Of a stretch of 64,000 nucleotides of DNA, positions 30,680 through 42,624 are shown one piece after another. The notes under the pieces are model-generated. The model saw only the letters and a list, made by a program, of their open reading frames with translations, had not been told where the DNA came from and made no database searches. The first letter of the stretch is position 1. The number at the start of each line of letters is the position of its first letter. Source of the stretch: Salinivirgaceae bacterium (GTDB lineage: Bacteria > Bacteroidota > Bacteroidia > Bacteroidales > SZUA-534); contig JAKSOL010000002.1 of assembly GCA_024405635.1 (NCBI GenBank), positions 153,458-217,457 on the forward strand, read 5' to 3'. Made by a program: the position numbers and the translations under genes.

Positions 30680-31534
30680 ATGATTAGTAACGACGATATT
30701 GCAAAGGTTCTGGCTGCTTTTAAAACGGCATCAACCTACGATTTTAGCGATTATTGCGACAGGTCGTTTGCGCGCCGAGTTGACAAGATTCTTACCGATA
30801 ATAAAATTTCTGCCGATTTGTTCGTGAAACAACTAATGAGTGATCGCGACTTCCTTGAAAAATCGGTGCGCGACATTACGGTAAACACAACCGAGCTTTT
30901 TCGCGATCCGCAAATGTGGCTCAACTTGCGCTATCAAGTGTTGCCTCGTTTTAAGGATAAACCTACAATTAAAATTTGGCATGCAGGCTGCTCATCGGGA
31001 CAAGAGATTTATTCAATGATGATTTTGCTTAACGAACTTGGCATGTTCGATAAAGCTCAAATCTTTGCTACCGATATAAATACCGCTGTTATTGAGGCCG
31101 CACAAACTGGTACTTACAAGTACATGTTCAACTTGAATTATTTGGACAACTTTGACAAGGTGATGCGCGAAAATCCGTACAACTTTGAGCAAAAGTACGA
31201 CGTCCCTTATGAAAAATACTTTGATATTGATAAGCGTAAGGACGTTATTCAAATGAATGATTTCTTGTGTAAGAAACCAGTGTTCCGTAAGCATGACTTG
31301 GTGAGCGGATGCAACCCATTCTATCACCAATTTGATTTAATATTGTGCCGCAACGTAATCATTTACTTTAATCCCAAATTGCAAAATAAGGTTATCAATA
31401 TGTTTGCAAATAACCTATCGGTAAATGGCTTTTTGATTTTGGGAGCTTCGGAAAGTATTTTGGGCTCGGCCAATAGTAGCTTTGAGCGAATGGTAGGTTT
31501 CTATCGTAAAAAACAAACAATTTCAATGTTTTAG
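30680..31534 (+). CDS. cheR: CheR-type protein-glutamate O-methyltransferase
   Basis: ITVNTTELFRD, IWHAGCSSGQEIYS, ATDIN, DLILCRNVIIYF, G.LILGASE. Confidence 0.93.
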   Translation: MISNDDIAKVLAAFKTASTYDFSDYCDRSFARRVDKILTDNKISADLFVKQLMSDRDFLEKSVRDITVNTTELFRDPQMWLNLRYQVLPRFKDKPTIKIWHAGCSSGQEIYSMMILLNELGMFDKAQIFATDINTAVIEAAQTGTYKYMFNLNYLDNFDKVMRENPYNFEQKYDVPYEKYFDIDKRKDVIQMNDFLCKKPVFRKHDLVSGCNPFYHQFDLILCRNVIIYFNPKLQNKVINMFANNLSVNGFLILGASESILGSANSSFERMVGFYRKKQTISMF

Positions 31535-31537
31535 CTT

Positions 31538-32365
31538 ATGATAGAAACTTTGGGTATAGTGGATATTAGAAAAATGAACGGATTTGTGTCCGAGGCATTT
31601 GGCATTAATTTGGCCGACTATGCGTCAACCATATTAAAACGCCGCTATGTGCACATGCTCAATACATATAATTGCGTGTCGGTAGATAATTTTGAGGATA
31701 GAATAAAAAAAGGAATAATTACCGCCGATGATGTGATGTATGAAGTGTCGCTAGAGACTACAGAATTGTTCCGCGATCCTTCGGCTTGGCGCGAAATGCG
31801 TGACAAATACTTGCCAGAAGTGTGCAAGTCGGGCAAGTGTAATATATTAATGCCCGGCGAGTCTTCAGGTGACGAACTTTACTCAATGATGATAGTGTTG
31901 TCTGAAGCAAATTTGTTAGATAAAGTTCAAGTAGATGCGTATTGCCCATCAAACCGAAACTTGAAACAAATAAAAGATGGTGGTTTGTATGATTCCAAAA
32001 AATTAGAGTTGGGTGATGCAAACTATACTAGATATTCGGGGCCTAAAACATTGTCCAACTATTATACATTGGTGGACAATAGAGCAAAAATGCAATCATC
32101 GTTGCTTAATGGGGTAAATCTTTCGGTGCGCGATGTACAGAAAAATGCCGACACAAAACGATATAAAATGATAGTGTATCGAAATGTGTTGCTGCAATAT
32201 TCGGTTCCATTGTATGAGCGAGTGGTGAAAACCTTAGTTGATAAACTTGACATAGGCGGTTACTTGATTATTGGCGATATGGAGACCCTTGAGTATTGCG
32301 ATTCAAACCGAAAATTGGTTTTGGTTGATAGCGCTGAACAGGTGTATCGTAAAAAGATGGATTAG
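31538..32365 (+). CDS. Second, degenerate CheR-like protein
   Basis: TELFRDP, SSGDELYS, RNVL and GGYLIIG.ME retained; AGC replaced by PGE and ATDI by AYCP. Confidence 0.8.
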   Translation: MIETLGIVDIRKMNGFVSEAFGINLADYASTILKRRYVHMLNTYNCVSVDNFEDRIKKGIITADDVMYEVSLETTELFRDPSAWREMRDKYLPEVCKSGKCNILMPGESSGDELYSMMIVLSEANLLDKVQVDAYCPSNRNLKQIKDGGLYDSKKLELGDANYTRYSGPKTLSNYYTLVDNRAKMQSSLLNGVNLSVRDVQKNADTKRYKMIVYRNVLLQYSVPLYERVVKTLVDKLDIGGYLIIGDMETLEYCDSNRKLVLVDSAEQVYRKKMD

Positions 32366-32368
32366 AGT

Positions 32369-32935
32369 ATGGAAAGCGAATATAAAGCCATAATGATTGG
32401 AGGTTCTGCCGGAAGTTTTCAGGTGGTGTGCAAAATAATAGCCGCATTGCCTGCCGACTATCCATTGCCAATTATTATGTGTTTGCATAGATTGAAACAT
32501 GTGCGTTCGGGCTTTGTTGAGGCTCTTTCAATTAAATCAAAGTTGCCTATAATTGAGCCCCACGACAAAGAACCTCTACGCAATGGTCGCATATATTTGG
32601 CTCCCGCAAACTATCACATGTATATAGAGTTGGGTAACCGTTTTTCACTATCTACTGAGGATGTGATTAATCACTCGCGCCCATCAATCGATTTGTCATT
32701 CTTTTCCGCCTCGTACAATTATAAGCGTAAGTTGGTGGGAATAATTCTTAGTGGAGCCAACAAAGATGGAGCTCTAGGATTGAAAAGTGTAGCAGACGGT
32801 GGAGGCTTGACTATAGTCCAAGATCCTAAAGAATGTCAAGTCCCAACAATGACTACAGCTTCAATGAATGCAACAAAAGTTGACCATATATTTACAACCA
32901 AACAAATTATTGACTTTTTGCTTAAACTAACATAA
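32369..32935 (+). CDS. cheB: Stand-alone CheB methylesterase (no receiver domain)
   Basis: GGSAG (Ser), CLHR (His), SRPSID, LSGANKDGA (Asp), IVQDP. Confidence 0.92.
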   Translation: MESEYKAIMIGGSAGSFQVVCKIIAALPADYPLPIIMCLHRLKHVRSGFVEALSIKSKLPIIEPHDKEPLRNGRIYLAPANYHMYIELGNRFSLSTEDVINHSRPSIDLSFFSASYNYKRKLVGIILSGANKDGALGLKSVADGGGLTIVQDPKECQVPTMTTASMNATKVDHIFTTKQIIDFLLKLT

Positions 32936-32945
32936 CCCTAATTGT

Positions 32946-33698
32946 ATGGATATTTTGAAACACAAAAGCAAAACGTACACTTGCGGCATCTTGATGATGC
33001 TACTTTGTGTAGTTTCAATTATAGTACTGCTTTGCGGTAGCCAAAATATGGGCAATATAGCATCGCTCACATTGTTGGCATTGCTAGTTCTAATGGCGTT
33101 TATGGCGTTCAGTATGATGCTTATGGGCATCAAAATGGTAGACACAGTTATCGAAACCGAAGAAGATCGAATGATTGAGACCGAAGACCAATACGAGCAA
33201 AAGGTTGATGATATTATAAGAGATATAGATCAACGAGATTTCGATTTGGAAAAGGTAGCATCTCTTGTAACTAAAAACGAAGGTTGGAAAATGTTTGCAG
33301 AATCTCTTTTATCTTCGTTGTCAAAGCAAGTTGATATGGCGATAGGAATTGTATATAAGGCCGAAAAAGATGATAATGGAGATGTGTTTAATCCAGTGGC
33401 AACATATGCATATTATAGCGATCAAGCTCCATCCAGTTTTAGAGTGGGAGAGGGTATATCGGGACAAGTGGTGTTAGATAAAAAATCAATGATGCTAAAC
33501 GAATTGTCAAACAAAAACATGACAATAGTGTCGGGGTTAGGCGAGTCGCAAGTCAATAATTTGGCAATTGTTCCAATTTTAAAGGACGATAATGTGGTCG
33601 GTTTAATAGAAATTGCTACATTTAAACCATTGGAAAAATGTGTAGCAAGCAAGATAGATGATTTGTCTAAAGTAATTGGTAATATTGCACCTTTATAA
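32946..33698 (+). CDS. Two-TM GAF-domain protein
   Basis: Two N-terminal hydrophobic helices; ATYAY, F.VGEGISGQ, IVSGLG, IVPI, GLIEIATF GAF signature. Confidence 0.85.
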   Translation: MDILKHKSKTYTCGILMMLLCVVSIIVLLCGSQNMGNIASLTLLALLVLMAFMAFSMMLMGIKMVDTVIETEEDRMIETEDQYEQKVDDIIRDIDQRDFDLEKVASLVTKNEGWKMFAESLLSSLSKQVDMAIGIVYKAEKDDNGDVFNPVATYAYYSDQAPSSFRVGEGISGQVVLDKKSMMLNELSNKNMTIVSGLGESQVNNLAIVPILKDDNVVGLIEIATFKPLEKCVASKIDDLSKVIGNIAPL

Positions 33699-33710: not shown

Positions 33711-36338
33711 ATGGGAATTTTAGTTGATACCATAAAGAGTGTCCTAGTATATAGGGCAAACAACAAGGAGAACTACGTGCCAAGCATGGTATGTATAGGC
33801 ATACTTGTAGTTGTCGTGTCGTGGATTGTTGCGTTTATAAGCAACGATATCGAAGTGTCTATTGTAGGATTGACAGAAATACACGGCCAAAATGCAATTT
33901 TGTTTGTTGTTGATTTGCTCCCATTTATAATGGGAGGTATTGGTTATGTGTTTACAAAATCAACACGCCAAGCAATACATGAGTTGACTGCTGAAATAAA
34001 CGAGAAGAATCGTGTTATTACACAAAATGCTCAATTTGCAAAAAAAATAGGTGAAGGCGATTTTAATGCTCAAGATGGAGAGGTTGATGATAACGATGTG
34101 TTAGGCCACTCGTTGAAAATTATGAAGAACAACCTTGCCGAAACTAATGAAAAAGAGAAAGAACATAACTGGATTGCAAAAGGAAAGGATTCAATTGCTG
34201 ATATCTTGCGCAAACAGTCAGAACTTGATAAACTATCGTATGAGACTTTGGTTGAGGTAATTAAATACATTGATGTTATTCAAGGTGCGTTTTATATCTA
34301 CAACGAAGACGAAAAAGTGTTGGAAAATACAGCGACTTATGCATATAACCGCCGCAAATATCAAAACGCAAGTTTTGCTATAGGAGAGGGCTTGGTCGGT
34401 CAATGTGCATTTGAGATGGATGTGATTTTCCGTCGCGAGATTCCTGATGATTTTATCACAATTACTAGTGGCATATTAGGTGAGCAAAAACCAACGTCGT
34501 TATTGCTGGTGCCTTTAGTGTCTGACGAAAAATTGCAAGGAGTTCTTGAATTTGCGTCATTAAAAGACGATATCACTGATTTGAAAATCAGATTTGTGAA
34601 AGAGTTGAGTGATGTTATTGCCCGTACTATTTCAAACTTAAAAGTATCTGCAAATACATCACGACTATACGATGAGTCCCAAAAAATGACAAAGGAATTG
34701 AAGGAGAGCGAGATTGCGCTTCTTCAAGAAAAAGAGCAATTGCAAGAAACTCGTGAGGAGGTTGAGAAGAAAAATGCTGACCTTAATGCACAAAACGAGA
34801 AGATTGAAAATGCGCAAAAGCGTTTGAATTCATTGCTTGAAAATGCTTCGGAGATTATTTCAATCTATGACGAAAATAGAGTGCTTACATACATAAGTCC
34901 TTCAGTTGTAAATATATATGGCTACACTGGAGATGAAATGATTGCAGGTAAGGACCTTGATAGGTTGACAGCAAAAGGTATTAAAGAGTTTGCAGAGGCA
35001 TTTACAAAACTACTTGAAGATCCTGAAACTCCGCAAACAATTCAATATACTTATATGAGGAAAGATGGCCAAAAGATCTTTATAGAATCAATTGGTCGAA
35101 ATTTGTTGAACGACCCAGCAATTAAGGGTATCATTATCAACTCGCAAGATATAACTGAGCGTAAACGTGCAGAGAAAGAGGAGCGCATGAAGAGTAAAAT
35201 GCAGTCGTTGTCCGAAAACTCTCTTGATATGATTACTCGTGTTGGTACTACTGGTATATTTTTCTATGCAAACCCAGTGGTTAAAAAATATACAGACATT
35301 GAGCCCTCAGCGTTGATTAACAAGAATTTGAATGAAGTTGATTTCCATCCGCAAATCAAAGTGTCGCTTAACGAAGCAATACAAATTGTGAAAGAAACTC
35401 ATGAGAAACACGATACAGAGGTTACTTTCCCAACTAATTTTGGTGATCGTATAATGCAAGTAAATGCAATACCAGAGTTTAGCGACGATAACAAAGAATT
35501 GGAAACTATTTTGCTTGTTGCTCACGATATTACTGAGCAAAAGATGGCGGAAATGGAAATTCAAGAGAAGAATAAATCAATTACCGAGAGTATCAACTAT
35601 GCTAAACGAATTCAGAACTCAATTCTGCCAAATACCAAGTTTATACAAGAGTATTTGCCGAACTCGTTCATATTGTATCGCCCTCGTGAGGTTGTAAGTG
35701 GAGACTTCCCTTGGTTCTTTAAAAAAGGTGATGACTTGTTTATCGCAGCAGTTGATTGTACAGGTCATGGTGTGCCGGGAGCTTTGTTGTCGTTTATTGG
35801 TTATTTTACATTGAATAATGTTGTTGACCACTATGACAATATTAACGCAGGTCAAATCCTAGATAAGGTTCACGAAGGGGTTCGTACAACATTGAAGCAA
35901 GATCGTATTGATTCTGAGGCTCGAGATGGTATGGATATGGCACTTTGTAAAATAAACCTTAAGAAAAATATACTAGAATTTGCAGGTGCTCATCGTCCTT
36001 TGTATTTGACGAGAGGAAAAGAATTGATTCAATACAAAGGAAGCCATAAGGCAATTGGAGGTATACCATTGGGTAAGAAACAGGAGGAAGATTTTGAGAA
36101 TCATTTGATAAATCTTGAAGCTGGTGACCGCGTATTTTTCTTCTCTGATGGATTCCCTGACCAAGTAGGAGGAGATAGTGGAAGAAAATATCAAACAAAT
36201 AGAATGCGAGAAGTGCTTTTAAATAACACAGAAGCAACTATATTTGAGCACGAAAAAATATTGAATGATGATTTGGAAGCTTATAGAGGAAACTATAAGC
36301 AAGTTGATGATATATTATTAATAGGTATAGAGTTTTAA
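33711..36338 (+). CDS. Membrane sensor phosphatase: TM-HAMP-like-GAF-coiled coil-PAS-PAS-SpoIIE/PP2C (SiaA-like)
   Basis: GEGLVGQC GAF; two PAS domains ending DITERK and DITEQK; PP2C motifs VSGDF, DCTGHGVPGA, DGMD, FSDG..DQ, DDILLIG. Confidence 0.9.
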   Translation: MGILVDTIKSVLVYRANNKENYVPSMVCIGILVVVVSWIVAFISNDIEVSIVGLTEIHGQNAILFVVDLLPFIMGGIGYVFTKSTRQAIHELTAEINEKNRVITQNAQFAKKIGEGDFNAQDGEVDDNDVLGHSLKIMKNNLAETNEKEKEHNWIAKGKDSIADILRKQSELDKLSYETLVEVIKYIDVIQGAFYIYNEDEKVLENTATYAYNRRKYQNASFAIGEGLVGQCAFEMDVIFRREIPDDFITITSGILGEQKPTSLLLVPLVSDEKLQGVLEFASLKDDITDLKIRFVKELSDVIARTISNLKVSANTSRLYDESQKMTKELKESEIALLQEKEQLQETREEVEKKNADLNAQNEKIENAQKRLNSLLENASEIISIYDENRVLTYISPSVVNIYGYTGDEMIAGKDLDRLTAKGIKEFAEAFTKLLEDPETPQTIQYTYMRKDGQKIFIESIGRNLLNDPAIKGIIINSQDITERKRAEKEERMKSKMQSLSENSLDMITRVGTTGIFFYANPVVKKYTDIEPSALINKNLNEVDFHPQIKVSLNEAIQIVKETHEKHDTEVTFPTNFGDRIMQVNAIPEFSDDNKELETILLVAHDITEQKMAEMEIQEKNKSITESINYAKRIQNSILPNTKFIQEYLPNSFILYRPREVVSGDFPWFFKKGDDLFIAAVDCTGHGVPGALLSFIGYFTLNNVVDHYDNINAGQILDKVHEGVRTTLKQDRIDSEARDGMDMALCKINLKKNILEFAGAHRPLYLTRGKELIQYKGSHKAIGGIPLGKKQEEDFENHLINLEAGDRVFFFSDGFPDQVGGDSGRKYQTNRMREVLLNNTEATIFEHEKILNDDLEAYRGNYKQVDDILLIGIEF

Positions 36339-36357
36339 AACATAAAATATAATTGCT

Positions 36358-36933
36358 ATGGAAAATTCAGATTTCCTAGATTTTGTTTACAATTTCAGCG
36401 ACTCAATGGGCAAACGAAATGCCGAGTTGGTTTATAAAGGTGAGATATCGCACCAAGTAACCAAGGCGTTTACTTCGTTGACCGAAACAAGTATGTTGAT
36501 GGAGCAAGAACCTAATTCGGTGCAGAAAAAGGTTTTTCACGTTATTGTAGAGTTCTTGCAAAATATTAGCAAACACGCTGATAGCTTGGAAACTGGAGAA
36601 GACCGCCGTGAGGGTAGCGGAGTGTTCTTGCTTTGCAAAGACGAGGAAAATTATACCATAACAACAGGTAATGTGATGATGATTCACAAGAAAGACGCAA
36701 TAGCATCAATTCTTGAGAAAATCAACTCATTGGACCGAGAAGGGTTGAAAGCCTTGTATAAGCAGCAGATTAAGGACGGCCGTTTGAGCGAAAAAGGTGG
36801 CGCAGGCTTAGGCTTTATTGATATAGCAAAGAAAACAGGTAATAAACTTAATTATTCGTTTGTCCAATTGAATGACGAGTATACATTTTTTATTATATCA
36901 TCAACAATTTCGAGAACTCAATTATCAGATTAA
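36358..36933 (+). CDS. siaB: SiaB-family (DUF6272) GHKL-type Ser/Thr protein kinase
   Basis: YKGEI, VFHVIVEFLQNISKH (N box), TGN, GGAGLGFIDIAKK. Confidence 0.88.
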   Translation: MENSDFLDFVYNFSDSMGKRNAELVYKGEISHQVTKAFTSLTETSMLMEQEPNSVQKKVFHVIVEFLQNISKHADSLETGEDRREGSGVFLLCKDEENYTITTGNVMMIHKKDAIASILEKINSLDREGLKALYKQQIKDGRLSEKGGAGLGFIDIAKKTGNKLNYSFVQLNDEYTFFIISSTISRTQLSD

Positions 36934-36955: not shown

Positions 36956-37339
36956 ATGGAAGTAATTAAAATAGTTGGAACCGACGATACTCCAAGTGTA
37001 ACACTAGACGTTGCAAACGAAATTTTTGAAATTTCAGGACGTTCACTTCCTGAGGACGTTGCAATGTTTTATAAACCTATTTTGGATTGGTTGGACCGTT
37101 ATGCTGATGAGGCAACAGGTAGCACTGTGTTTAACTTCAAATTGGTTTACTTCAATACTGCATCTTCAAAAATGATTCTTGATATCCTTTTGAAATTAGA
37201 GGAAATACATGAGTCGGGAAAAGAAGTGCTCATTAAATGGTATTATCCTGATGACGACGAAGACATGGAAGAGGCAGGTGAAGAATACTCTGACATTGTT
37301 GATGTGCCATTTGAGCAAATTAGCTATTCATTGGATTAA
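36956..37339 (+). CDS. siaC: SiaC-family (DUF1987) phosphoprotein
   Basis: TP.V, ISGRSLPE, FYKPILDW, YFNT68ASSK, WYY..DDEDMEEAGEE. Confidence 0.92.
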   Translation: MEVIKIVGTDDTPSVTLDVANEIFEISGRSLPEDVAMFYKPILDWLDRYADEATGSTVFNFKLVYFNTASSKMILDILLKLEEIHESGKEVLIKWYYPDDDEDMEEAGEEYSDIVDVPFEQISYSLD

Positions 37340-37385: not shown

Positions 37386-40300
37386 ATGAGTGAAGAGATC
37401 TTAAAGGCCTTAATGCAGCTCTTTGCGATTATTGCAAAGCAGGATGGTGGCGTAAAGGAAAGCGAGATAGACTTTGTAGAAAATTTCTTGACTTCTCAAT
37501 TGAGTTCAGACTTGGTTGAGGAGTTTTTGGCTTTATTCTACAAACACGCCCAAATTAGTGGCCGTGAGGATTTGCAAAAGGCAAAAGAAAACGAAGACGT
37601 TAAGTTAACTTCGGTAACCGACTCGGTTCGTATTCTTGGTATATGCAAAAAGATTAACAAGACACTGACCCAACAACAAAAGGTTGTTACGTTGGTGCGT
37701 TTGTTTGAGTTGGTTGCAGCTGACCGCCAATTTACAGAGCAGCGTATGGCCATTATCAATACAGTGGCCGAAGTATTTAATGTTTCGTCAGAGGAATTTT
37801 CAAATACTGAAACGTTTGTTGTTAAAGAATCGGTTGATGGTCTTGATGTCGCAAGCATGTTGATTATCAACGATAAACCTCTTGAATTAACAGCTGCTAA
37901 GCATATCCAAATTGAAGATCTTGACCAAGAATTGGTAATACTCCAAATAAAGAGTGTTGACCTTTACTTCTTGAAGTATATGGGTAGCCATGAGCTTTTG
38001 CTTAATGGTCTGCCAATCAAAGGAAATAAAATTTACTTGTTTGCTAATGGTAGTGCAATTCGCTTCCCTAAAGGTAAACCAGTATATTATAGCGACGTTG
38101 TTTCAAAATACTTGGCCGATGTAACTTCTGCCAAAATCACTTACAACGTTAATGATCTTGAGTATAAATTCCCAAATGGCGCAATAGGTTTGCGTAACAT
38201 CAACTTGTCGGAGGAGCAAGGCAAGTTAGTTGGAATTATGGGCGCTAGTGGTGCAGGAAAAACAACATTGTTAAATGTACTTACTGGCAACGAACGCCCA
38301 TCGCAAGGAAATGTTCTTATAAACGGCATTGACCTTCATAATGAGAAGGAAAAAATGGAAGGTGTTATTGGATATATTCCACAAGACGACCTTTTGATAG
38401 AGGAACTGACAGTGTATCAGAACCTTTATTTCAATGCTAAATTGTGCTTCAAAAATATGAGCGATGAGGAAATTCAGGAGCGAGTTGATAAAACATTGCT
38501 AAACTTGGGTTTGCTTGATCGTAAGGATTTGAAAGTAGGTTCGCCTCTACATAAAACCATTAGTGGTGGTCAGCGCAAGCGTTTGAATATCGCGCTTGAA
38601 TTGATAAGGGAACCCCCTGTATTGTTTGTTGATGAGCCTACATCTGGTTTGTCGTCGCGCGACTCGGAAAACGTAATGGACTTGTTACGTGAGTTGTCGT
38701 TGAAGGGAAAATTGATATTTGTTGTTATTCACCAACCATCGTCAGAAATCTACAAGATGTTTGACAAAATGGTGATACTTGATACTGGCGGTTATCTTAT
38801 TTATTATGGAAACCCAGTTGATGCAGTTACCTATTTCAAAAAGATTGATGGACAATTGAATTCAGACCAAGGTGAGTGCCCAACTTGTGGTAATGTTAAC
38901 CCGGAATTGATATTTAACATTATTGATGCTCAGGTGGTTGACGAGTTTGGTAGATATACTAACAAACGTAAAGTAACACCAGTTGAGTGGGAGGATAAAT
39001 TTGCAGAGGTTAACAAAAATGTGAAATTGCCCGACCAAAAGGAAACTCCACCTAAATCTTTGGATATTCCAAAATGGATAGATCAGGTAAAGATTTATTT
39101 CCGTCGCGATTTCTTGGCAAAGATTAGTAATAGGCAATATATTTTGATGAACATATTGGAGGCTCCAATTTTGGGACTTATCCTTTCATTTTTGATTCGC
39201 TATATTGCTGATCCTAATTCTAATGTGTATATCTTCCGCGAAAACGCAAATATTCCAATTTACGTTTTCATGAGTATGATTGTGGCAATGTTTTTAGGAT
39301 TGATGGTGAGTGGTGAGGAAATTTTTAAAGACCAAAAGATTTTGAACCGCGAAAAGTTTTTGAACTTGAGCCGATCGTCTTATTTGGTTGCAAAAATCGC
39401 CATACTATTCATTATTTCGGCCATTCAGTCAATTTTGTTTGTGCTTGTAGCCAACTCAATATTGGGAGTTAGAGGAATGTGGTTCGAATATTGGTGGGCA
39501 TTGTTCACCATTGCAACCTTCTCAAATATGACAGGCTTAATTCTGTCGTCAACATTTAACTCTGCCGTTACCATTTACATTATGATTCCATTGGTAATGA
39601 TTCCACAAATGGCGTTGGGTGGTGCAATGTTCAGTTTTAATAAATTGAACCGAGCAATTGGTAGTGTTAATGGAGTTCCTCCAATTTGTGAGTTTATTGC
39701 AACTCGTTGGGTTTACGAAGGAATGATTGTACGTCAATATAAGGATAATAAGTTTGAGCGTTATTTCTATGAATATGAAAGACAGGTTAGCGTTGGAGAC
39801 TTTAAAACTACGTTCTATCTTCCAGAATTGAGTGAACGAGTTGATCGTTGTGCTTTTGCTTGTGGTTCGGTTATGACCGATGCAGATGCAAATACCTATA
39901 AATGGGAATTGGCTACATTGAAAAATGAGCTTGGAAAAGAAAAGACTCGTGTTCCTGATAGTTTGTTAAACTATTCGTTTGAATATCTTGAAGATCTTAC
40001 TATTGAGAAGTTTACTCCAGAAGTTGGAGCATATACTCGTGAGTATATTGAGTTGCTAAAACAGTATTATAAAAAAATGGCCGACGACGCTACTCTTCGT
40101 ATAGAAACTATAAAGAATTATTGGGAAAGTAAAAGTCCTGGCCAGTTCCAAAGACTACGTCAAGCGTATCTGAATGAAGCTATACAAGATATTGTACTTA
40201 ATAAAATTGAAGCAAATAAAGTTTTGTCGTACAAAGATAGGCTAATACAACAAGTTGATCCAATATATGAAACACCATGGGTAAATAATATCTTTGATTA

Positions 40301-40493
40301 CAGAGCACAGTTCTTCTCTCCAACCAAATATTTCTTAGGCCACGAATTTGATACCTTTTGGTTTAATATGTGGGTGGTATGGTTAATGACAATCGCATTT
40401 TATTTTGTGTTGTATTACGATGGTTTGAAGAAACTTATGAATGTTTCAATAGGAGATTTTGTCAAGAAATTGACGAAAAAATTTCAAAAATGA
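37386..40493 (+). CDS. ABCG-type (NBD-TMD) half transporter with TerB-like N-terminal domain and a large extracytoplasmic loop
   Basis: GASGAGKT, ISGGQRKR, LFVDEPTSGL, VIHQP; ABC-2 membrane domain; N-terminal LMQLFAIIAKQDGGV..SE. Confidence 0.9.
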   Translation: MSEEILKALMQLFAIIAKQDGGVKESEIDFVENFLTSQLSSDLVEEFLALFYKHAQISGREDLQKAKENEDVKLTSVTDSVRILGICKKINKTLTQQQKVVTLVRLFELVAADRQFTEQRMAIINTVAEVFNVSSEEFSNTETFVVKESVDGLDVASMLIINDKPLELTAAKHIQIEDLDQELVILQIKSVDLYFLKYMGSHELLLNGLPIKGNKIYLFANGSAIRFPKGKPVYYSDVVSKYLADVTSAKITYNVNDLEYKFPNGAIGLRNINLSEEQGKLVGIMGASGAGKTTLLNVLTGNERPSQGNVLINGIDLHNEKEKMEGVIGYIPQDDLLIEELTVYQNLYFNAKLCFKNMSDEEIQERVDKTLLNLGLLDRKDLKVGSPLHKTISGGQRKRLNIALELIREPPVLFVDEPTSGLSSRDSENVMDLLRELSLKGKLIFVVIHQPSSEIYKMFDKMVILDTGGYLIYYGNPVDAVTYFKKIDGQLNSDQGECPTCGNVNPELIFNIIDAQVVDEFGRYTNKRKVTPVEWEDKFAEVNKNVKLPDQKETPPKSLDIPKWIDQVKIYFRRDFLAKISNRQYILMNILEAPILGLILSFLIRYIADPNSNVYIFRENANIPIYVFMSMIVAMFLGLMVSGEEIFKDQKILNREKFLNLSRSSYLVAKIAILFIISAIQSILFVLVANSILGVRGMWFEYWWALFTIATFSNMTGLILSSTFNSAVTIYIMIPLVMIPQMALGGAMFSFNKLNRAIGSVNGVPPICEFIATRWVYEGMIVRQYKDNKFERYFYEYERQVSVGDFKTTFYLPELSERVDRCAFACGSVMTDADANTYKWELATLKNELGKEKTRVPDSLLNYSFEYLEDLTIEKFTPEVGAYTREYIELLKQYYKKMADDATLRIETIKNYWESKSPGQFQRLRQAYLNEAIQDIVLNKIEANKVLSYKDRLIQQVDPIYETPWVNNIFDYRAQFFSPTKYFLGHEFDTFWFNMWVVWLMTIAFYFVLYYDGLKKLMNVSIGDFVKKLTKKFQK

Positions 40494-40543: not shown

Positions 40544-41467
40544 ATGAACAGAAAGTTCCAATTTCTTTTTGGCACTCTATTAGCAGGCTCATTGTTATTG
40601 GTGGGTTGCCAAGGTGATGGTAATAAATCGAGTAAGTCAGACGATTTTTCTATACCGGATTCAATTTTTGACAACAAGCCTTTGATGATTTCAAAGGATG
40701 CAATGAATGATATTATTGAAAATCTTTCATCGCCAATTGAAATGGCTGCGTTATTAAAATCAGCAGGTGTGCCATTTCAACAAAAATATTTGGCTCCAAC
40801 TAACCGAGTTGACGGATTGACAACCAACTTTGAGCAAGCTTTAAATCTTGGTGTTTATGGTTGCGATCTTGGATACTTGAACATGTATGAAAAAACAGGT
40901 TCAATTATCAATAGCATGACAGCAATTAAAAATCTTGCAAATGCGTTGCGTATTGGCCAGTTCTTTGATTTTAATACAATTAAACGTTTGGCAACCAACA
41001 ATGAAAATATTGACTCGTTGATGTATATTTCGGTTTCGGCGTTCAATAATATGGACGAATATCTTCGCGAGAACAATCGTAGCAATATCAGTGCATTGCT
41101 TATGACAGGTATGTGGCTTGAAGGTATGTACCTTGCAGGTCAAGTTGCTAAAGAGTCGCCAAATGCTAGCGATATAATTGAACGTATTGGAGACCAAAAA
41201 CTAGTGCTTAACGACCTTATTTTGGTGCTTAAGAATTATAAATCAGACCCAAGTTTTGCCAAACTAATTAAAGAGATTGAGTTAATTAAAAAGGAGTATG
41301 AGAACGTGAGGATTACTTATGAAATGGGTGAACCTGAGGCAAAAGAGATTGACGGAATGCTTGTTATTATTCAAACAGACAAACAGAATGTTGAAATTTC
41401 AAATGAAACCTTGGGCAAAATTATTTCAGCAATTGAAAATGCTCGTTCGATGATTATCAATTTGTAG
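40544..41467 (+). CDS. Hypothetical helical lipoprotein; paralog of 17806-18645
   Basis: Lipobox LVGC; SPIE, ALNLGVYGCDLGY, GMWLEGMYL, DQKLVL. Confidence 0.85.
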   Translation: MNRKFQFLFGTLLAGSLLLVGCQGDGNKSSKSDDFSIPDSIFDNKPLMISKDAMNDIIENLSSPIEMAALLKSAGVPFQQKYLAPTNRVDGLTTNFEQALNLGVYGCDLGYLNMYEKTGSIINSMTAIKNLANALRIGQFFDFNTIKRLATNNENIDSLMYISVSAFNNMDEYLRENNRSNISALLMTGMWLEGMYLAGQVAKESPNASDIIERIGDQKLVLNDLILVLKNYKSDPSFAKLIKEIELIKKEYENVRITYEMGEPEAKEIDGMLVIIQTDKQNVEISNETLGKIISAIENARSMIINL

Positions 41468-41479
41468 AAATACTGACAT

Positions 41480-41914
41480 ATGAAAAGATTATCAATCTAC
41501 ATATTACTTTCTTTATTTTTGGTTGTATTTGCGACAAGCAAAACTAGTGCTCAAGACAACGAATTGGTTAATGTTTGTGCTTTGGGTATTGGTAACGCAA
41601 CATATCTAAAGGACTTTAAGGTTAAATTGCCAGCAAGTGCTGCAGCGGCACCGTCTACCAAATTCAATGTAATTTTGAATAAAGGTACTATGTACAAAAT
41701 TACTGTATGTAATGCCGAAGGATATGAAGGTAAGGCTGTTGTGAGTCTTTTGGAAGGCCCCAAAGCTCTTGGTTCTAATCTAAATGCTGATGGTTCGTTT
41801 CAACCTGCAATTGGTTTTATGTGCCAAAAAACAGGTATGTATAACATTGTAGTGTCGTTTAAAGGTGGAAAAGAAGGTGCGGCTGTTGCAATTTTGTCGT
41901 ACGTTAACAAATAA
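41480..41914 (+). CDS. Small secreted beta-rich hypothetical protein
   Basis: Signal peptide ending AQD; three Cys in the mature part; last gene before the terminator. Confidence 0.8.
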   Translation: MKRLSIYILLSLFLVVFATSKTSAQDNELVNVCALGIGNATYLKDFKVKLPASAAAAPSTKFNVILNKGTMYKITVCNAEGYEGKAVVSLLEGPKALGSNLNADGSFQPAIGFMCQKTGMYNIVVSFKGGKEGAAVAILSYVNK

Positions 41915-42042: not shown

Positions 42043-42624
42043 ATGTTTATTCCCGACGAAAAAACTTTAACACTATTTCGTGATTATTGCACTTTGAATG
42101 AGGAGTTTGATGGGAAATCGATTTCTAATGCAATGATGTATGCGTATCAATGCCATGCTAATACATTGCAGAGCTATGATGATAAACCTTACACATATCA
42201 CCTTAAAATGACCTATGATTATGGTTGTAAATTTGCTCATTTGCTAACTGCTACAGAATGTGAGTTAGCATTGTCGGCTTGTTGGTGTCATGATGTGATT
42301 GAAGATACTCGTCAATCGTATAATGACGTAACAAAGGCTTGTGGAGTGGAATTGTCTGAGGTTGTTTATGCTCTAACAAACGAAAAAGGGCGCACACGTG
42401 AAGAAAGAGCAAACGATCAATATTATTTGGGTATTAGACAAAATGAGGTGGCTACTTTTGTGAAGTTATGCGATAGATTAGCCAATGTAACTTATTCATG
42501 TGAAAATAATCAGCGAATAAAGTTGGCATATAGGAATGAATACGCACATTTTAAGCAATCAATATGGAATCTGCGTTTTGCAGAAATGTTTAGCGCTATT
42601 GAGCAAATTTTAGGTTTGAATTAA
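42043..42624 (+). CDS. Single-domain HD hydrolase, small alarmone hydrolase/Mesh1-like
   Basis: PY.YHL, HDVIEDT, V.ALT, VKLCDRLAN motifs of the RelA/SpoT hydrolase domain. Confidence 0.8.
   Translation: MFIPDEKTLTLFRDYCTLNEEFDGKSISNAMMYAYQCHANTLQSYDDKPYTYHLKMTYDYGCKFAHLLTATECELALSACWCHDVIEDTRQSYNDVTKACGVELSEVVYALTNEKGRTREERANDQYYLGIRQNEVATFVKLCDRLANVTYSCENNQRIKLAYRNEYAHFKQSIWNLRFAEMFSAIEQILGLN

Follow-up and report, generated by a model that had tools for sequence, protein, structure and literature searches.

Lineage-specific decay of a methyl-acceptor-like motif in the signalling helix of a SiaA-like PP2C phosphatase from a Salinivirgaceae bacterium

We found that, in a Salinivirgaceae bacterium, the helix joining the GAF domain of a SiaA-like PP2C phosphatase to its first PAS domain has lost much of a methyl-acceptor-like motif that its relatives keep. 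The parts involved are known (a MAC2/RsbK-type helix and a SiaABC switch), and what is new here is the lineage-specific decay of the phosphatase motif. The reading that we favor, with a probability of about one half, is that an ancestral methyl-accepting S-helix now serves mainly as a rod, that CheR1 and CheB would adapt output-less receptors controlling the phosphatase in trans, and that the phosphatase and SiaB would together set the phosphorylation state of SiaC.

The window (the whole stretch of 64,000 nucleotides that was analysed) carries an operon in which cheR1, cheR2, a receiver-less cheB and a gene for a small membrane GAF protein precede the phosphatase gene, and siaB, siaC, a TerB-ABC transporter gene and two genes for further conserved proteins follow it. 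The sequence-only reading had placed CheR and CheB next to the phosphatase, and a cheR, a second cheR-like gene and a cheB do lie upstream of it. The features are as follows:

30680..31534, + strand: CheR1, a canonical-looking methyltransferase (1 of 62 conserved positions differs; fast on this branch)
31538..32365, + strand: CheR2, divergent and CheR-like (FRDP kept; the Asp of the ATDIN-type motif, present in CheR1, is absent)
32369..32935, + strand: CheB methylesterase lacking a receiver domain (63 of 63 conserved positions intact; sole CheB match in the genome)
32946..33698, + strand: small membrane GAF protein without a coil
33711..36338, + strand: SiaA-like PP2C phosphatase, 875 aa (ORF list, Pfam, AlphaFold2)
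34632..34841, + strand: GAF-to-PAS signalling helix of the phosphatase, aa 308–377, homologous to MAC2/RsbK-type S-helices
34692..34766, + strand: decayed methyl-acceptor-like motif, aa 328–352 (comparison with orthologues)
36358..36933, + strand: SiaB-family protein kinase (NF038262: 157 bits against an 85-bit cut-off; 1 of 58 conserved positions differs)
36956..37339, + strand: SiaC-family phosphoprotein, with Thr68 in YFNTASSK (0 of 57 conserved positions changed)
37386..40493, + strand: TerB-like plus ABC-2/ABCG-type transporter
40544..41467, + strand: conserved 307-aa protein, no Pfam or NCBIfam match
41480..41914, + strand: conserved 144-aa protein, no Pfam or NCBIfam match

Beyond the operon, at 42043–42624, comes an HD-domain gene, as it does in the sister genus (61% identical).

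The phosphatase starts with two N-terminal hydrophobic helices and a probable HAMP-like segment, followed by the GAF domain (aa 172–307 in Pfam), the coil, two PAS domains (the first from about aa 369) and the SpoIIE/PP2C domain (aa 673–874). The PP2C active-site set is kept (D665, D682, G685, D813, G814 and D866) and matches the residues listed for SiaA (10.1101/674879). Just before the catalytic Asp665, aa 660 (window 35688–35690) is Glu, and Asp is found here in 185 of the 186 orthologue rows with a residue. AlphaFold2, run as a monomer with 40 sequences, predicted helix at aa 290–349 and 360–377, with pLDDT below 50 for aa 343–379. A sequence search for a solved structure of the GAF-coil module found none (best E 0.36), and a pattern scan of GTDB gave no match. 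In the linker between the two PAS domains, an invariant EE at aa 490–491 (window 35178–35183) is kept in this copy, outside any consensus context, and is a possible alternative site.

The sequence-only reading had described a Glu/Gln-rich stretch between the GAF and first PAS domains (window 34659–34840, aa 317–377), and this description holds. The rich peptide spans aa 322–366 (window 34674–34808), and 14 of the genome's 1670 ORFs of at least 200 aa contain a 45-aa stretch that is as rich with as many pairs. That reading had also seen QE, EQ and EE pairs in a heptad arrangement. Four Glx-Glx pairs are indeed present, but their number does not exceed what the composition gives (95% of 10,000 shuffles equal it), and the heptad arrangement failed for this copy, as only two of the four pairs fall in one register (p = 0.85). 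Put through the same shuffle test, an orthologue showed four pairs in one register (p = 0.015).

Comparison with the orthologues indicates what has changed. The family motif, read from 119 homologues plus further genome and metagenome loci, consists of Glx pairs at aa 328–329, 335–336, 342–343 and 349–350, spaced seven residues apart, with E-E-M-R-A-T at aa 342–347. The four slots, mostly EE in the orthologues, are KE, IA, EQ and EE in this copy, which leaves Glx pairs in two of the four slots and in one of the first three; the consensus Ala346 is Glu. An E-E-X-X-A-S/T site was sought in the whole phosphatase and none was found. Of 25 positions, this copy has the consensus residue at 11, the minimum over 196 orthologue rows (116 genome loci and 80 metagenome loci). 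E335, E336, R338, N340, A341, E343 and A346 are replaced, including the near-invariant E343 (99%) and E335 (97%), while the core positions L330, L337, L344, V351, L358 and I365 are still hydrophobic. Highly conserved positions are changed at 10 of 20 sites within aa 328–352, compared with 13 of 329 elsewhere in the protein (Fisher p = 2e-8). The loose fit to the MCP consensus conceded in the sequence-only reading is thus borne out, no [EQ][EQ]xx[AS][ST] site being present; it reflects lineage-specific decay, as the motif is tight in the relatives.

On a tree built without the coil, this copy is sister to 16 rows that all have EEMRAT, within a 30-row clade that likewise has EEMRAT. This placement, surrounded by relatives whose motif is complete, makes the decay a loss. 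Between the sister genus and this genome, the phosphatase GAF domain is 81% identical and the motif 44–48%; relatives with 72% to 98% identity were sought, and none were found. An assembly error or a compensating frameshift was ruled out by a 98%-identical protein with the same coil. Contigs from two other studies are identical over 34659–34840 (two of the four runs compared covered it); one run with the coil stretch is an RNA library, and such contigs do not show transcription. In this copy, the coil probably functions chiefly as a signalling rod that links GAF to PAS.

Was the coil alone in changing? We counted changes in this genome and in one sister genome with the help of two outgroups. 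Window-only and sister-only changes numbered 28 and 0 in the coil (aa 308–372), 52 and 10 in CheR1, 8 and 0 in GAF, 11 and 2 in SiaB, and 8 and 1 in SiaC, and were closer to even in CheR2 (25 and 18), CheB (4 and 4) and the ABC protein (45 and 42). Among 44 branches, the window branch was the fastest for the coil and the second fastest for CheR1, yet it did not stand out for CheB, CheR2, GAF, PAS or PP2C. The changes in CheR1 include several from Lys or Arg to neutral residues, and its conserved core is kept. This shared acceleration hints that this coil had CheR1 as its partner, and it counts as much against our favored reading as in its favor. A family-wide covariation of coil and CheR1 rates was rejected: a first estimate with a shared denominator gave rho 0.41, but with a fairer background the value over the 44 branches was 0.24 (p = 0.11), and SiaC then scored higher (0.41).

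Could the coil have been a methylation target in the family? The chemoreceptor consensus is E-E-X-X-A-S/T, with the second Glu usually the methylated one (PMC1079850). The sequence-only reading had suggested looking for conserved Glx pairs in orthologues, and EE at aa 342–343 is found in 79 of 85 GTDB and 66 of 67 metagenome orthologues with an adjacent cheB. Three or four in-register pairs occur in 67 of these 85 and 65 of these 67 rows, and an E-E-X-X-A-S/T site in 64 of the 85 GTDB orthologues. Furthermore, the S-helix of RsbK (HAMP-GAF-S-helix-kinase) is reported to be methylated by RsbM, a CheR homologue (PMC4574943, PMC12848376); this is the only tested helix of the methyl-accepting S-helix type that we found. 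A profile of the GAF-coil module matched an RsbK-like protein with E 1.6e-43 and cheR-linked kinases with E 1e-32 to 1e-60, all in register. At one unannotated locus with an rsbK-rsbM-rsbY layout (L330), identified as rsbK-rsbM by gene order, the kinase coil aligns in register and the CheR shares 36% identity with CheR1.

A plasmid search with the same module matched 244 records, of which 15 were read (14 kinases and one receptor). All three first slots held Glx pairs in six of six kinases with an adjacent cheR, compared with one of eight without; these records were hand-picked, the cheR-less ones look related, and cheR was looked for in the flanks. The consensus is incomplete in cheR-linked kinases, whose A-T half is missing (EELRQTN, EELQTQA). 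The Bacillus thuringiensis plasmid NC_022876.1 (L329) encodes a cluster of an RsbK-like kinase with a receiver-phosphatase, STAS, RsbW and SigB; this cluster has no cheR-like gene, yet the EE repeats are kept. The claim that the coil is a CheR/CheB substrate therefore fares differently at two levels: for the family, the conserved pairs and the RsbK-type homology suggest that the coil is likely a CheR/CheB methylation helix in the relatives, but this copy is the most degenerate of all rows compared.

If not this coil, what would CheR1 and CheB modify? The genome is 99.78% complete and has two CheR matches and one CheB match, and a search across it for MCP, CheW and CheA-dimer domains gave no match. 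Seven further proteins share the GAF-coil module. Membrane helices are predicted for them, their sensor parts are of Cache or other type, most have PAS tails, and Pfam detected no catalytic domain in any of them. Six of the seven keep E-E-X-X-A-T, and each of these six has counterparts in three sister-genus genomes; the seventh lost the motif on this branch, as the phosphatase did. Of 25 EExxA[ST] sites in the 1670 ORFs, the five with Glx pairs both seven residues before and seven after are all in output-less receptors. Because their motif is intact, the six receptors are better candidate substrates than this coil, and it is likely that CheR1 and CheB act on them rather than on the phosphatase. 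One receptor (L041:5077-7755) ends in a weak hemerythrin-like domain (E 0.006) and is possibly an oxygen sensor. Elsewhere (L038:1970-10241, G000:C18), two output-less receptors, one of them motif-less, come right after a paralogue of the TerB-ABC protein (43% identical).

The phosphatase has an orthologue in 32 of 33 genomes of the family and, in a sample of 401 genomes from the order, in 125; judged by eye, all 125 are among the 241 of the 401 with a CheR match. The holders include animal gut metagenomes (13 rows from 7 studies). An identical ten-gene order was seen in four of five relatives examined, and the fifth (G111) has a single cheR. Many families have the operon in two parts, cheR-cheR-cheB(-small GAF) and receptor-phosphatase-siaB-siaC-ABC (L166-L185, L136-L159), some with a second CheR1 beside the phosphatase block.

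We also asked whether retention of the motif tracks cheB. In 116 genome loci taken from both ends of the hit lists, with one row dropped for its unknown residues, EE at aa 342–343 was kept in 7 of 25 rows without an adjacent cheB and 3 of 5 at contig edges, as against the 79 of 85 given above. This raw association is strong, but with only four independent pairs it does not reach significance once the tree is taken into account. Nor do the unlinked orthologues serve as CheB-less controls, as that label was mostly wrong: 22 of 27 genomes without an adjacent cheB (or with a contig edge) have the operon-type cheB elsewhere, as a cheR2-cheB block, and the cheR-cheR-cheB block is found apart from the phosphatase. 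Since operon-type cheB persists where the phosphatase motif is mostly lost, the enzymes are independent of the motif in the phosphatase itself. Operon-type CheB was absent in three congeneric genomes (two with other CheB types) and was not found in the fragmented assemblies G508 and G342. In a module survey for which 30 of 64 matches were retrieved, 0 of 12 modules in the three congeneric genomes kept the EE pair, which counts as one event, whereas seven other genomes kept it in 22 of the 45 modules scored; G508 kept pairs in 5 of 11.

A CheD next to the operon in G243 was rejected as support, as it is part of a canonical Che cluster with MCPs. That cluster, which the operon abuts (L045, L050), comprises MCP, STAS, CheY, Hpt, CheA, two CheW, CheR, a kinase, CheD and REC-CheB. 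MCPs are present in all 16 other family genomes outside g150 and in 3 of 16 within g150, and are absent from this genome.

In CheR-type enzymes, the Asp of the ATDIN-type motif has a role in SAM binding. It is missing from CheR2 in most of 54 orthologues, and CheR2 is therefore likely a pseudo-enzyme, to judge from its residues. It lies directly upstream of the receiver-less cheB even where the operon splits, both are missing together in genus g264, and CheR2 may be a CheB adaptor. The phosphatase scored 192 against a 700-bit cut-off for the SiaA equivalog, which is below it, and no GGDEF match was obtained among the 12 neighbouring proteins scanned. The Thr68 peptide of SiaC is known from 10.1101/674879. 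To judge from gene order, the ABC transporter is a candidate output. The genome encodes at least three more phosphatases of the SpoIIE type (L005, L006 and L044, on G000:C5, C3 and C2), and these could act on SiaC too.

In the mechanism that we favor, the receptors would sense ligands through their Cache-type or other domains, CheR1 would add and CheB remove methyl groups at the receptor E-E-X-X-A-T sites, and the receptors would control the single phosphatase in trans via the shared HAMP-GAF-coil module. The phosphatase and SiaB would then set the Thr68 state of SiaC, with the ABC transporter as a possible output. For this reading speak the confinement of the decay to the coil, the six intact receptors and the retained conserved residues of CheR1, CheB, SiaB and SiaC. 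Against it, many receptors elsewhere are without the pair despite CheB, the motif-cheB link is not significant, and one receptor of this genome has decayed as well. Furthermore, the residual E349-E350 and E342-Q343 could be usable, as in the cheR-linked kinases without the A-T half, and the fast CheR1 on the same branch fits an enzyme that tracks the phosphatase coil and not the receptors.

These last points lead to the alternative that the coil is still a substrate, with E350, and Q343 after deamidation by CheB, methylated by a co-diverged CheR1 and the phosphatase directly tuned by methylation. Two in-register pairs remain, MAC2/RsbK-type coils do not need the A-T half, cheR/cheB and the phosphatase gene are still adjacent, and the coil and CheR1, but not CheB, CheR2 or the other phosphatase domains, hold the top two speed ranks. 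On the other hand, the coil has the lowest consensus match, E343 and E335 are replaced, its pairs are at shuffle level and its rates show no significant family-wide covariation with those of CheR1, and we regard this alternative as rather unlikely. The joint acceleration also agrees with CheR1 having once been dedicated to the phosphatase coil, both now being under relaxed selection as methylation control fades in a small-genome gut lineage. The decayed receptor and the milder excess of change in SiaB and SiaC point in the same direction, but the near-complete conservation of key positions in CheR1 (1 of 62 changed) and CheB (0 of 63) and the site kept in six receptors make such fading the least probable of the explanations considered. 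It is also improbable that the Glx pairs are structural or partner-binding in S-helices and unmethylated in the phosphatase family, with CheR and CheB acting elsewhere. The PAS1-PAS2 linker is equally conserved, with its invariant EE outside the consensus, a cheR-less plasmid kinase keeps three pairs, and the tree-aware motif-cheB test was negative; yet against a structural role stand the exact consensus in a seven-residue register, the RsbK S-helix homology, the enrichment of three pairs in cheR-adjacent kinases and the loss of pairs in the genus without operon-type CheB, and the genome yielded no further candidate substrate.

Taking the favored reading further, we tentatively suggest a chemotaxis-like pathway built from non-chemotaxis parts, in which a pool of receptors adapts by CheR/CheB and controls one PP2C in trans, as MCPs control CheA, with SiaB and SiaC as the phospho-switch. 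This genome would then be a natural mutant whose phosphatase gave up its own sites. If true, such a phosphatase would show that adaptation can sit on the receptors alone.

How does this operon compare with known systems? Its order of PP2C, SiaB kinase and SiaC with Thr68 is identical to that of Pseudomonas aeruginosa SiaABCD (10.1101/674879), and the active-site residues are kept; unlike SiaABCD, it has an ABC transporter in place of a diguanylate cyclase, a different sensor part and an attached methylation module. The orthologues and receptors share with the MCP helices of E. coli Tsr (PMC1079850) the E-E-X-X-A-S/T sites seven residues apart, but they have no MCP signalling domain, CheA or CheW, and this copy has no consensus site. 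The likeness to Bacillus cereus RsbK-RsbM-RsbY (PMC4574943, PMC12848376) extends to HAMP-GAF-S-helix, heptad-spaced EE pairs, an adjacent CheR-type methyltransferase and, downstream, a PP2C with a partner switch. The RsbK helix, however, drives a histidine kinase in its own chain, and RsbY, the PP2C, is a protein apart that carries a receiver. Here, two PAS domains connect the helix to the PP2C in a single chain, and the system additionally includes CheB, a further CheR-like protein and numerous receptors that lack an output. Full-text literature, with subscription papers outside its coverage, yielded no description of this combination.

The closest general class is MAC2 (Wuichet and Zhulin 2010, via 10.1101/2022.05.07.491037, which calls methyl-accepting coiled-coil systems experimentally uncharacterised), in which a separate CheR and a receiver-less CheB accompany a non-MCP coiled-coil sensor and, likewise, no CheA, CheW or MCP is needed. 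A MAC protein is described as a single chain that unites receptor and kinase. In the present system a PP2C provides the output, seven receptors with no output of their own share the sensing, and the motif of the phosphatase itself has decayed. The operon thus places a methyl-accepting-type helix on a phosphatase, and this genome and the sister genus are a ready pair for identifying the protein that CheR methylates and for finding out whether receptors that lack an output can signal in trans.
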